Sequence record: PV763136.1
Source: Escherichia phage vB_EcoM_YN3
Length of the DNA stretch: 64,000 nucleotides
Strand: one strand, 5' to 3'
Part shown: piece after piece, positions 13,410 to 41,524 of the stretch
Numbering within the stretch: the first letter of the stretch is position 1
Layout of the letters: every line of letters starts with the position of its first letter
Program-made: the position numbers and the translations under genes
Notes under the pieces: generated by a model
The model's input: only the letters and a program-made list of their open reading frames with translations
Databases searched by the model: none
Told to the model about the DNA's origin: nothing

Positions 13410-16400
13410 TTAACGAGAAAAGGTTGCGTAGGCTTCTAGACGATACTGCTGGTCACCAGGGAACATAACACCTATAGAGGCTGTCCCTAGAATCCTGCCT
13501 TCCTTTCCAGACTCCATTCTGAACCCTACCCATCCTGAACTCCTTGCAGCCTCGATGTTGTCGCTATACCCGAAAGTGGCAAGATCGTCAACACCAGCCC
13601 CAAACAGCAACTGAAGCTGACTTCTCGGAAGCCCTATAATTTCAGGAATATACGCACCAAAGTACACCATCTGCCCTACCTTAGGACCGCTGCCGTACTC
13701 CATCGGTTTGCTTGTAGAGAAAGTCTTCATACCAGAAGTACCTGCCGGATTAGGGTATGCCCCGTTTGTTGCTGTACCTATCCACATTCTCCACTGTGGT
13801 GCCATCTGTTTGACAGTAAAAGATGTTGAAGACGTTTTGCGCCCTGCATCATCAGTAACTACAAACGTTATAGTGACATTACCAGTAGCTTTAAATGTTA
13901 CCAGTCCTGTGGTGGCATCCACTGTTGCAATGTTGGTATTACTACTTTCCCAAGTCTTTCTAATCCCGGCTACGTTGGAAGGGGTAATAGAAGGTTCCTG
14001 CATCTGCAGTTTACCACCAACAATCCCTATGCCGTTGCCCGGATTATACAGCACACCAACCTCGTCTATAATGTTCCCTGCTTTGAGACTATACTTCCTT
14101 GAGAAGTTGTAGGTTCCGTTATAAGTGTGTGTCCCTGAGAAGGTGACATCTGCCTTCCCGTAAGAGATGCAAACCAAAGCATACTTCCTGTCAGGCAACG
14201 TTGCTCCAGTCTCCGGATGAGTTTTACCCACCTGAAACACACTCGGGTCAGTGGAGTCGTGGCTATCACTAACTGAGCTTGGACCACCCATCAGTTGTGA
14301 CAAGCAATTCCTTACCCATGTCCAGTTATTATCGCTGGAGAAGTCCACAGTCAAATCAAACACAACCCACTCATTCGGCTTCCACACAGGTGTTGTAATG
14401 GACTTGCCTACACCACCCCCTTGGAGTGTTGCTGACTGTTCAGTGATCAGGGCCGCATAGGCCAGAGTTCCTAAACTCAGAGTCTGGCTTGCTGTCCTCA
14501 CTACCTTAGAGTCCGCGTCTGTGAAGTTGTTGATGATCTGGAATGTGCCATAAGTGTTTTTACAGGTAATTCTGGCGTTCAGCGTGTCAATCTTCCTCAC
14601 ATCTGCCATAGCAGCGTTAGACACAGAAAAGTCAGAAGCTTTAGCTGAGTTTGCCGCAACAGCAGGATCAACGTTAAGAGTTGCGTTGAACTGACAAGCA
14701 GGAGTAACCAGCAGCTTGTTATCGCCTATTTGCTTCCATGCAACACTTTGAACAGGAAGATTCCATTTGATACCTGAGAAAACTTTAGCAACCCTTGGAC
14801 CCAAAGCTCCAGTCCTGTTGTCTTTACAGCACATGGACATGGTGATCGTTGACGGGGTAGCCTGACCGAACAGTTGTTGTGCTTTTGCAGAGGACATGGT
14901 GTAGAAATTGTCCCTAACAAACTCATCAGCGGCTAAAGATCCATCAGCCCTCCACCACTGAACCTGATACCCTGTCTTATCCCAGCCACCAACCTGCTTC
15001 AAGTCCTCCCAGGAGATTTCCAGATCCCCGGTGGTAGGATTGATTGCAGCAGTTCCTGGTGTTCCAGATGACCATATTGGAATATCGAACCACGCTGGTT
15101 TAACCGACTGCACTGCGCTGGGACCTATTGCGGCAGCAAGTTGCTGGCCCATCAATACGCGAGCATCTTTCACCAGACCCCACTCGATCATAGACCCAGA
15201 GTAACCTTCTTTCTTGTAGGCTGAGGATCCGTTCAAATGGATGAGTCGGCTTGTGCCAAAGTTATGTGCTCCACCACCGTTGTCGTCTGCAAAATTGGTT
15301 ATGATTCTGTCCCTGATATTTTTCCATGCCCTGCCTCCAATCTCGTAGTCATGGTCATAACATCTTTGCAGTGTTGTCCAGCAAATGATCGCCATCCTTC
15401 TACCATTGCTGAAGCCAAAGGCCTGATCGTTAAGCTCTCTCCACAAGTAGCAGTTGGTGGTCCACATGGCCCTATGAATGTTAAACCAGTTTATAGATTT
15501 GGCTGAGTTGTTCCACTGAGTCCCAGGTAATTCAGGCCATACTGCATTAACCAGCATGTCTTCTGTTCCTGCATCAACCAAGAACCCTCTCACCTTCTTA
15601 CCCATGCCTACCCTATCTTTTGCAATCCAACTGCCAAACAATCTCAGTTTTGGACCGTAGACAACATCTTCCGGATGCTCAAAAGAAATATATTTTAGGT
15701 ATATTGTAGGGTCACCATAGGTGCCATCACAAACAGCTTTGTGCATGTTCTCACCAAGGTCTAGACGAAGTCCTGTTACAACTCTAGACGTGTCGGTGAA
15801 TTTGTCTGTTAAATCAAACTCATACCACCACCAACCTGCACCCAACAATACTTTCTTACAACGCTGTGCATCTGTATCAGATATTCTCTTATCACCTGCA
15901 AAAGGTGAGTCAGCAAACTGATAGTGCAGAGCAACCTCAAAAGGATGTGTGGATGTCCCGTTTTCTGCAAGAACTTGTTTACCTATCAGGTCGCACTTAA
16001 TGATCATCACAACACGTTTGTATCCGTTTGTTACCGGAATTTGCATGGACATGGATGTCCCATCCATGTTTGATCTCAGTGCAGTCATGATGATATAAGG
16101 GTCAACGGCATTGCCCAAAGTCTCAGGACCGGGGATTATCTTATACTTCTTGACCTGCCCCATGATGTAGTCACTTGCGTAAGTTGCCTCATTCAAGCAA
16201 GATCCTCCACCAGGTAACTCACCAGGTCCCCAGAAAAATGCGCCGTAACAGTTGTAGAACCACTTGTTAGGATCGTATTTATTCTTGAAGGTCTGAACCT
16301 CGTTGGCCTGTTTTGTCAAGAAAACCTGCGTGTCTGTGAAGATTGCAGGGTTTACTCTCGCCTGTCTTGGAGGGTAACCTGTAGTTTGGTTAAACCACAA

Positions 16401-40855: not shown

Positions 40856-41524
40856 TTAGATAGCTCCTGCTATAATCAGTGCCCCGTACCAAGTTAACCC
40901 GTTGTCGTAGGTTTCTAACTTGAAAATATCTGTTGCACCAGCTGTAAATGTTAGGATAGGATCTCTTCCGTATGCCCATTTAACATTATCAGGCCAATAG
41001 ACTTTGTTACCGCCAGAGGTCTGAGTAATGCATACGGTTATAGTTCTCGCCACCCCTTCAAGGCCTTCTGTTTGATTTTCAAAAGCGATTGTGGTATTTG
41101 AAGTTAGTCGAACTTTAAAAGTGTCCGCAACTTCAAGATCCATATCAAGCTGACCACCAATAGATCCGTAATCAACTATTCTGCCAGAAGAAGTTGCAGC
41201 AAGCTCCCCAAAAACAGACCAGGCTTTTGCAGACACACCTCCAGCACCCTCTACAGTAGAGTCTGGAAGGATTATTTTAGGATAATCCCCGTTCCACGTG
41301 TAGTAGCGCTTGGTCTCTGGGTCATAAGCAAAGTCCTTCTTGCTCTTAAGATAACCACCCTCTGTGAAATAGACTATTTTGGTAATGCTGAGATCGTTGA
41401 CAACATCGTCAATCTTAGCCTTTCTTGTCCCATCAGTCTGATTGACAACCAAGAAGTCATCACTCAGGACTGTTTCTGCATCTTCAAGATCTGGAATTGG
41501 TATTGTAGGATAAGCTACAGCCAT
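40856..41524 (-). CDS. fibre-anchor (adaptor) domain protein
   Basis: 222 aa; first ~100 aa (…DDFLVVNQTDGTRKAKIDDVV…FTEGGYL…DFAY…) homologous to the N-terminus of the 1267-aa fibre. Confidence 0.45.
   Translation of the reverse strand: MAVAYPTIPIPDLEDAETVLSDDFLVVNQTDGTRKAKIDDVVNDLSITKIVYFTEGGYLKSKKDFAYDPETKRYYTWNGDYPKIILPDSTVEGAGGVSAKAWSVFGELAATSSGRIVDYGSIGGQLDMDLEVADTFKVRLTSNTTIAFENQTEGLEGVARTITVCITQTSGGNKVYWPDNVKWAYGRDPILTFTAGATDIFKLETYDNGLTWYGALIIAGAI

Follow-up and report, generated by a model that had tools for sequence, protein, structure and literature searches.

Gene content of the tail fibre locus

Positions 13410-41524 of the DNA analysed here, a 64,000-nucleotide stretch of Escherichia phage vB_EcoM_YN3 (PV763136.1; hereafter the window), contain a large array of tail fibre and baseplate genes on the minus strand. 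The interval runs from the stop codon of a gene for a protein of 1878 amino acids (aa) to the start codon of a gene for a 222-aa protein and holds 17 genes. Nine are of the fibre type and make up ~81% of the interval; the others encode a Tfa chaperone, two baseplate wedge proteins, three small proteins 5' of a J-like fibre gene, and two small conserved proteins of 88 and 104 aa. All nine fibre-type open reading frames (ORFs) were found in the ORF list on the minus strand, at the sizes given in a first-pass annotation of the sequence, and a Shine-Dalgarno sequence lies 5' of most starts in the locus. Profile searches, which bear on whether most of these ORFs are non-structural, returned strong matches to phage tail families instead, and all proteins of the locus have strong homologues in such families in PHROG, Pfam or the PDB; the ORFs are therefore real genes. 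A set of chance ORFs or a block of non-structural genes was rejected on account of this strong homology to phage tail proteins for every gene.

Homology to fibre, receptor-binding or adaptor proteins backs eight of the nine, the 1878-aa protein showing an immunoglobulin (Ig)-like domain only, and the first-pass count of about nine fibre or spike genes in 28 kb stands on that footing. The ORF positions also agree with its placing of the locus between the baseplate genes and the end of the late block, except that the genes for the two wedge proteins (228 and 496 aa) are within the locus and not upstream of it.

A megablast search of positions 13410-36000 against GenBank phages returned 130 records; in 95 of them, at least 80% of the query is covered, at 90-96% identity. 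Escherichia phage BP9 matched best (96.0% identity over 100% of the query), ahead of JohannBauhin and EduardKellenberger of the BASEL set and other rV5 relatives. Identity to Vequintavirus genomes, more than 90 in number, is 93-96%, over 95-100% of these positions. Word-indexed protein searches gave close relatives only. The locus is collinear, gene for gene, with annotated JohannBauhin, BP9 and rV5, and corresponds to ORF27-ORF43 of rV5. Because of this sequence identity and collinearity, the window is assigned to the genus Vequintavirus (rV5-like), a group of E. coli phages that have contractile tails and genomes of ~136 kb. We are highly confident that the interval represents the distal half of the late baseplate and tail fibre morphogenesis block of such a phage, with the multi-fibre working model given below attached to it.

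Eighteen unannotated GenBank records named 'Campylobacter phage' (MG0656xx, 135-143 kb, host C. jejuni) are ~94-95% identical to the locus, which suggests mislabelled hosts or contaminating coliphages.

Short fibres, the 581-aa fibre, the 690-aa protein and the wedge

Two genes encode short tail fibres of 346 aa (paralogue 1, rV5 ORF33, 23186-24226; here and below, features of the locus are on the minus strand) and 348 aa (paralogue 2, rV5 ORF30, 21128-22174, phrog_4465). The two are paralogues with 42.7% identity over 356 columns (E 6e-94), and both are homologues of phi92 gp147, which is fibre III in the cryo-electron microscopy (cryo-EM) study of phi92 (2026). Residues 1-108 of the 346-aa protein match the short tail fibre of phiTE (PDB 9cuy_c, E 1.4e-19) and its C-terminus matches Mu tail fibre protein S (PDB 5yvq); the N-terminus of the 348-aa protein likewise resembles the phiTE short fibre. 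Between the two genes sits one for a 194-aa Tfa assembly chaperone (22587-23171; Caudo_TAP, E 8.4e-12; phrog_136), a homologue of phi92 gp148. The first-pass description of two paralogous fibres of roughly 350 aa with a Tfa chaperone was therefore accurate.

Downstream, the 581-aa lateral fibre (rV5 ORF28, 19095-20840) was correctly called a fibre, with residues 8-325 matching the long tail fibre of phiTE (PDB 9cuy_g, E 6e-77). Its N-terminus also matches the N-terminus of phi92 gp150 and its C-terminus that of gp151. In the phiTE structure (PDB 9CUY/9MJN), wedge protein 2 and the sheath initiator are the binding partners of the long tail fibre. Two small conserved genes lie among these fibre genes. 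The 88-aa protein (20850-21116) matches phrog_1322, annotated as 'membrane protein', and is 35% identical to phi92 gp144, while the 104-aa protein (rV5 ORF31, 22261-22575) matches phrog_5345 over its full length, its other matches being weak coiled-coil-type Pfam families only. NCBIfam and relaxed Pfam scans of the small and unassigned proteins gave nothing useful.

The 690-aa protein (rV5 ORF34, phi92 gp142; 24239-26311) had been described as Calx-beta-like. A Calx-beta match was found exactly at the threshold (27.0 versus 27 bits), and the main identity of the protein is a different one, as it contains the TIM barrel of the non-contractile tail sheath protein (NCTSP) family (E 1.9e-79) as well as the NCTSP_N domain (E 8.5e-13). 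It also matches PDB 9lc0_M, 'Gp64' (E 3e-24), and is 42% identical to phi92 gp142. Judged by these domains, the 690-aa protein is mainly a homologue of the N4 non-contractile sheath protein, and belongs to a family reported to bind the NGR glycan; for the phi92 gp142 family, this activity was assigned on the strength of genetic screens and of comparative genomics (bioRxiv 10.64898/2026.04.02.716166).

Adjacent to this gene are those for the two wedge proteins. Wedge protein 1 (228 aa, 26311-26997; phrog_4056, 'baseplate protein') is a homologue of phi92 gp146. Wedge protein 2 (496 aa, 27009-28499) contains the Pfam Baseplate_J domain and matches its counterparts in phiTE (PDB 9cuy_T, E 3.4e-158) and phi92 (gp145, E 9e-56).

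A common N-terminal domain in the 1267-aa and 222-aa proteins

The gene for the 1267-aa fibre (rV5 ORF41, 34418-38221) encodes a variable allele with an N-terminal Tail_spike_N domain (residues 46-103, E 9e-10) and a C-terminal Peptidase_S74 domain (residues 1146-1197, Pfam E 1.7e-16), in line with the first-pass description of a fibre with a self-cleaving chaperone. Cleavage is predicted from the SSDRDLK motif, which places S1146 and K1151 at the spacing of a putative Ser...Lys (+5) dyad. The spacing is that of Ser911/Lys916 in endoNF. The N-terminus of the fibre matches G7C gp63.1 and CBA120 TSP1 and TSP4 (PDB 4qnl, 5w6h, 4oj5).

The same Tail_spike_N domain is found in the 222-aa protein (rV5 ORF43, 40856-41524; residues 51-104, E 3e-10), an adaptor or anchor whose N-terminus is 38% identical to that of the 1267-aa fibre over 99 residues and whose C-terminal half is 40% identical to phi92 gp140. 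Its neighbour, an 865-aa tail protein (rV5 ORF42, 38257-40854; phrog_2871, 'tail protein'), is 35% identical over its full length to phi92 gp141. Gene adjacency and the synteny with phi92 gp140/gp141 indicate that the 222-aa protein probably carries the 865-aa protein. A branched adsorption apparatus is plausible, since the TSP1/gp66-type N-terminal domain used in the branched complexes of CBA120 and G7C is present in both the 222-aa and the 1267-aa protein. The two genes had been proposed as an anchor-plus-enzyme pair; Tail_spike_N supports the anchor, and the enzyme label of the 865-aa protein was not confirmed by any Pfam, NCBIfam or PDB match.

The J-like fibre and the siphovirus-type tail-tip module

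The J-like fibre (1381 aa, 28605-32750) was identified by the Pfam families Ig_J, Ig_J_second and Phage_Tail_Tip and by matches to lambda J structures. It combines a J region of the siphovirus type with a pair of Ig domains, an expanded coiled coil and a tail-tip domain, and its C-terminus is variable. On the strength of the rV5 paper and RBPseg (PMC12143355), the N-terminal region is predicted to fold as a hub. Immediately 5' are the three small genes, of which the first encodes a 196-aa siphovirus-type distal tail protein (Dit; 33728-34318), the second a 188-aa protein (33175-33741; phrog_2048, 'tail protein') and the third a 145-aa DUF6950 protein (32750-33187; E 2.7e-33) with other homologues in siphoviruses. 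The TTG starts given by the ORF caller for the 188-aa and 145-aa genes overlap the upstream genes. On the basis of annotated relatives and the siphovirus alignment, the 188-aa gene probably starts at the ATG at 33726 and so encodes 183 aa, and the same evidence suggests a DUF6950 product of ~141 aa.

Evidence for the Dit fold comes from an AlphaFold2 (AF2) model built on a 73-sequence family alignment, which had a predicted local distance difference test score (pLDDT) of 90.5. T5 pb9 and DT57C Dit led its Foldseek matches (E 8e-9, template modelling (TM) score 0.67), followed by Chi, JBD30 and R4C, and the first 13 were all siphophage tail-tip or baseplate entries. The family profile matched the same Dit chains in the PDB (E 1.9e-4), and the protein also matches phrog_1302. 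For the 188-aa protein, a six-sequence profile had no match in the PDB, and a Pfam scan of its family gave one weak match, to the hub N-terminal domain PF09931 (E 0.089), which is a hint only. Profile-profile comparison with lambda gpM, gpL and gpK gave probabilities of 1% for the Dit-like protein, 0.2% for the 188-aa protein and 17% for the DUF6950 protein, whose likeness to gpK is a weak motif resemblance only, and we claim no equivalence to the lambda proteins.

The four genes are collinear with those directly after the tape-measure gene in the Seuratvirus KurtStettler. Identity to the KurtStettler proteins is 32% for Dit, 40% for the 188-aa protein (bas22_18) and 45% for the DUF6950 protein (bas22_19), while residues 48-734 of the J-like protein are 52% identical to KurtStettler J and the C-terminus 36%; from residue 48 on, identity to Seuratvirus J is 52-57%. 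PY54 and siphophages of Vibrio, Serratia and Pseudomonas also have the order tape-measure gene, Dit, X, DUF6950, J. Matches to the module proteins in the phage database fell into two groups with none between, either Vequintavirus proteins at >=90% identity (>=95% for the J N-terminus) or proteins at <60%, and the records sampled from the latter were siphovirus-sized genomes.

Unlike the siphovirus arrangement, the module lies away from the tape-measure gene (45322-47655). The genes between them encode a myovirus tube initiator, hub, spike and sheath initiator as well as three fibre proteins. The first-pass annotation had called the J-like protein a central fibre. The J-like part of that label is borne out by the domains listed above, and the central part is very unlikely in this myovirus, because the phage encodes a hub of its own (42940-43938), and a central spike of the phi92 type is encoded at 42263-42940.

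Two terminator-like hairpins flank the module exactly, one 5' of it (34391-34410; eight GC pairs, a TTCG loop and a T-run) and the other 3' of the J-like gene (28577-28598; a nine-pair stem, a TTCG loop and a T-run). They have a 16-nt core in common, CCCCGCTTCGGCGGGG. This likeness could mark the boundaries of a cassette, or it could reflect convergence on a GC-rich terminator with a TTCG loop.

Gene-by-gene tblastn comparison with BP9, rV5 and JohannBauhin showed that all locus proteins are 95-100% identical to these relatives except the J-like protein (99% to BP9, ~81% to rV5 and JohannBauhin) and the 1267-aa fibre (84-92%); the 1878-aa protein is 95-96% identical to the relatives compared. 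The coiled-coil shaft of the J-like protein is formed by a degenerate repeat of ~44 aa ('STNKATTDLLN...') at residues ~700-1010 (29600-30700 in the window). The strict STNKATTDLLN coiled-coil motif occurs in five copies here and in BP9 (1381 aa), in two copies in rV5 and JohannBauhin (1279 aa), and in none in Seuratvirus J. At the DNA level, Tandem Repeats Finder detected no tandem repeat in the J-like gene; the repeat shows in the protein sequence only. The allelic pattern agrees with the legend of figure S5C of Maffei 2021, who reported that only the three largest genes of the locus vary between genomes (PMC8594841), and fits J-like and 1267-aa proteins that contact variable host structures.

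These observations bear on whether the Dit, 188-aa, DUF6950 and J-like genes serve adsorption at all. The cassette could be a horizontally acquired siphovirus tail-tip module retained as baggage or in a role outside adsorption, as would be suggested by its collinearity with modules directly after the siphovirus tape-measure gene, by the absence from phi92 of homologues of the J-like protein and the three small genes, by the two similar flanking hairpins, and by the presence in the phage of a tube initiator, hub and spike of its own. This seems improbable to us, however, as the four ORFs are intact and at least 95% conserved in ~116 Vequintavirus records, the C-terminus and coiled-coil length of the J-like protein vary among alleles as they would in a host-selected fibre, and one good tryptic peptide of gp37 was detected in rV5 particles.

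A further, speculative proposal is that the Dit-to-J set forms a self-contained appendage. Under it, a complete siphovirus tail tip would have been captured and mounted on the contractile-tail baseplate as a lateral appendage, made of a Dit ring, the second small protein, the DUF6950 protein, and a trimeric J hub with a long, length-variable coiled coil. We regard this as tentative and, on present evidence, rather doubtful. If true, it would be an undescribed way to attach a receptor-binding fibre, and it could explain one fibre protein that cryo-EM has left unplaced. The homology of the module is itself already known, since the 2006 rV5 GenBank record notes similarity of ORF37-40 to PY54 and RBPseg describes a Vequintavirinae fibre with an N-terminus 'common in central tail fibers' (PMC12143355). 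In the literature searched, we found no paper that interprets the whole Dit-to-J module or places it on the particle. Among the fibre proteins not placed on the particle, the module is structurally the most puzzling.

The 1878-aa protein and the number of fibres on the particle

The largest gene of the locus (rV5 ORF27, 13410-19046) encodes the 1878-aa Ig-domain protein, a putative virion adhesin that matches phrog_15684 over its full length. Its sole recognisable domain is Big_2 (residues 1683-1733, E 8e-8, with matches to intimin Ig domains). Residues 43-197 match the 'tail protein' family phrog_11922, and this N-terminal domain is common to Phapecoctavirus- and Seunavirus-type phages at 30-40% identity. 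The first-pass annotation listed it as a giant protein among the fibres; the size is right, and the fibre label, which rests on annotation habit, was not confirmed by the single Big_2/intimin-like Ig domain. Just past the gene, a strong terminator (13373-13394) ends the late minus-strand block, which faces a plus-strand block of small genes (7652-13158); the sign of the GC skew switches near 6 kb, at the start of the plus-strand block, and near 13-14 kb, at the junction of the two blocks.

A branched, multivalent apparatus for adsorption, as proposed in the first-pass annotation, is in line with the published view of this phage group (PMC8594841, PMC7229145, PMC12143355). Maffei 2021 described the Vequintavirinae and phi92 as carrying three lateral fibre sets, a 'nanosized Swiss army knife', with enterobacterial common antigen (later recognised as the NGR glycan) as primary receptor and the outer-core glucose of lipopolysaccharide (LPS) as terminal receptor (PMC8594841). 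Seven fibres were predicted in the LL12 study (PMC7229145), and RBPseg refers to 'nine annotated tail fiber proteins' in the two Vequintavirus phages Bas49 and Bas54 (PMC12143355), the same count as in the first-pass annotation. In the rV5 paper, gp30, gp33, gp37, gp41 and gp43 were analysed as fibre proteins, and virion mass spectrometry of rV5 detected gp30, gp32, gp33, gp37, gp41, gp42 and gp43. The wedge and docking architecture is given by the cryo-EM structures of phiTE (2025) and phi92 (2026), the latter with three fibre sets on the wedge. The reading of the locus as encoding multiple receptor-binding proteins and a multivalent apparatus is thus that already held for rV5- and phi92-type phages.

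Several points weigh against counting each of the nine as a receptor-binding fibre of the virion. The BASEL authors considered the assignment of genes to fibres unclear (PMC8594841), and of the nine annotated fibres no more than three have been placed on particles, by cryo-EM of Bas49 and Bas54, which located the classes TC1 (the Mu-like short fibre), TC8 and TC12 (PMC12143355). The rV5 proteomics was shallow, with 19 proteins and coverage of 3-4% for gp27 and gp37; for gp27, the homologue of the 1878-aa protein, the signal was weak (3.1% coverage, non-tryptic peptides). The 1878-aa protein has no internal repeats, no fibrous composition and no fibre-like feature beyond its one Ig domain. The 865-aa protein had no sequence match in Pfam, NCBIfam or the PDB and no recognisable enzyme domain, and its AF2 model, built on a six-sequence alignment, was unusable (pLDDT 51.6). 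Foldseek matches of that model in the PDB (GH116, dextran dextrinase and others) had TM scores of 0.06-0.15 and were treated as meaningless.

It is accordingly conceivable, if short of probable in our judgement, that the particle displays only some three fibre sets at a time, and that several of the nine proteins are baseplate periphery, adaptor, assembly or decoration proteins, leaving a valency of two or three. Those that do not bind receptors independently would be the 222-aa adaptor, the 865-aa protein, the 1878-aa Ig protein and the Dit-like set. Such an arrangement would account for three cryo-EM densities against nine annotated fibres in two Vequintavirus phages (PMC12143355), for the absence of recognisable fibre or enzyme domains in the 1878-aa and 865-aa proteins, and for a 222-aa protein that is too short for more than an adaptor. 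It is also in keeping with the remark of Maffei 2021 that on E. coli K-12 such phages may in effect be monovalent (PMC8594841), a caveat to any multivalent reading. Flexible distal fibres are, on the other hand, routinely averaged out in cryo-EM, and the head of the TC8 fibre carries unassigned density (PMC12143355). Peptides of gp37, gp42 and gp43 are present in rV5 particles, and the J-like and 1267-aa proteins show the allelic diversification typical of receptor binders.

The window also contains a tRNA cluster on the minus strand (60862-61801; Pro, Met, Thr, Ser, Arg). In it, ARAGORN reports a 99-nt 'tRNA-???' with a four-base anticodon (61107-61205) that Rfam does not call, and Rfam calls a tRNA at 61512-61596 that ARAGORN missed.

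Working model of adsorption

Gene content, homologies and paralogy are direct observations, as are the common docking domains, the fold of Dit and the pattern of alleles; the following model, which we consider likely, draws on them and on relatives. The interval encodes two wedge proteins together with fibres, receptor-binding proteins and adaptors that would sit on the wedge periphery. In a first step, the 690-aa N4-sheath-like protein would bind NGR, the primary receptor, as proposed for its published homologues. The two Mu S-like short fibres, folded with the help of Tfa, would then bind the LPS outer core as terminal receptor, as in relatives, and by analogy with phi92 fibre III may help to trigger contraction. 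Through its N-terminus, which resembles that of the phiTE long tail fibre, the 581-aa fibre would dock on wedge protein 2 and on the sheath initiator.

The 1267-aa fibre and the 222-aa adaptor, with their one common N-terminal docking domain, would form a further part of the apparatus. As judged from relatives, the 1267-aa fibre would dock on the wedge, and the 222-aa protein probably carries the 865-aa protein, giving a branched unit. The 1267-aa and J-like proteins and, to a lesser degree, the 1878-aa protein are the variable parts and probably tune strain range. The J-like fibre would bring its own siphovirus-type Dit and two small partners.

Multi-fibre phages of the rV5 and phi92 type lyse an unusually broad range of hosts and are in use in cocktails for therapy and biocontrol, and the assignment of genes to fibres matters for host-range engineering. 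The genes described here do not represent a new type of system but add a further combination of alleles to a locus known since 2006-2013, which the BASEL, LL12, RBPseg and phi92 studies have already examined.

Comparison with known systems

The closest system is rV5 itself, in which ORF27-ORF43 comprise the same 17 genes in the same order, with nucleotide identity of 93-96% and most proteins 97-100% identical. The rV5 and JohannBauhin loci differ from this one in the J-like protein, which has 1279 aa and two motif copies there as opposed to 1381 aa and five copies here, as in BP9.

Likeness to phi92 (Justusliebigvirus) extends to homologues of gp140, gp141, gp142, gp144, gp145, gp146, gp147 and gp148, the N-terminus of gp150 and the C-terminus of gp151. 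The two loci differ in several respects. There is no match to the gp143 endosialidase here, and the gp150 colanidase is matched by its N-terminal 112 residues only. The short fibre is duplicated here, and the gp142 homologue has moved to a site downstream of the wedge genes. In phi92 there is no counterpart of the Dit-to-J module or of the 1878-aa protein, save for a weak match to gp153.

In the Pectobacterium phage phiTE, wedge protein 2, the N-terminal joint of the short fibre and the N-terminal bundle of the long fibre are homologous to their counterparts here, and these homologies give probable docking sites. The distal fibre parts are unrelated, and phiTE is flagellotropic. CBA120 (TSP1-4) and G7C (gp63.1/gp66) resemble this locus in the TSP1/gp66-type N-terminal domain, which is found here in the 222-aa and 1267-aa proteins; the difference is that no recognisable tailspike beta-helix enzymes are encoded here and that branching is a prediction here.

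The tape-measure-Dit-X-DUF6950-J modules of Seuratvirus and Queuovirinae and T5 pb9 are similar to the Dit-to-J genes in four-gene collinearity, protein identity of 32-52% and Dit fold. In contrast to those siphovirus tail tips, the module here belongs to a contractile-tail phage with its own hub and spike and is not beside the tape-measure gene, and the J-like protein is ~300-400 aa longer than Seuratvirus J, with an expanded coiled coil. Finally, the 690-aa protein has in common with the N4 non-contractile tail sheath protein both NCTSP_N and the NCTSP TIM barrel, whereas it is encoded in a myovirus baseplate cluster and carries an extra N-terminal Calx-beta-like domain.

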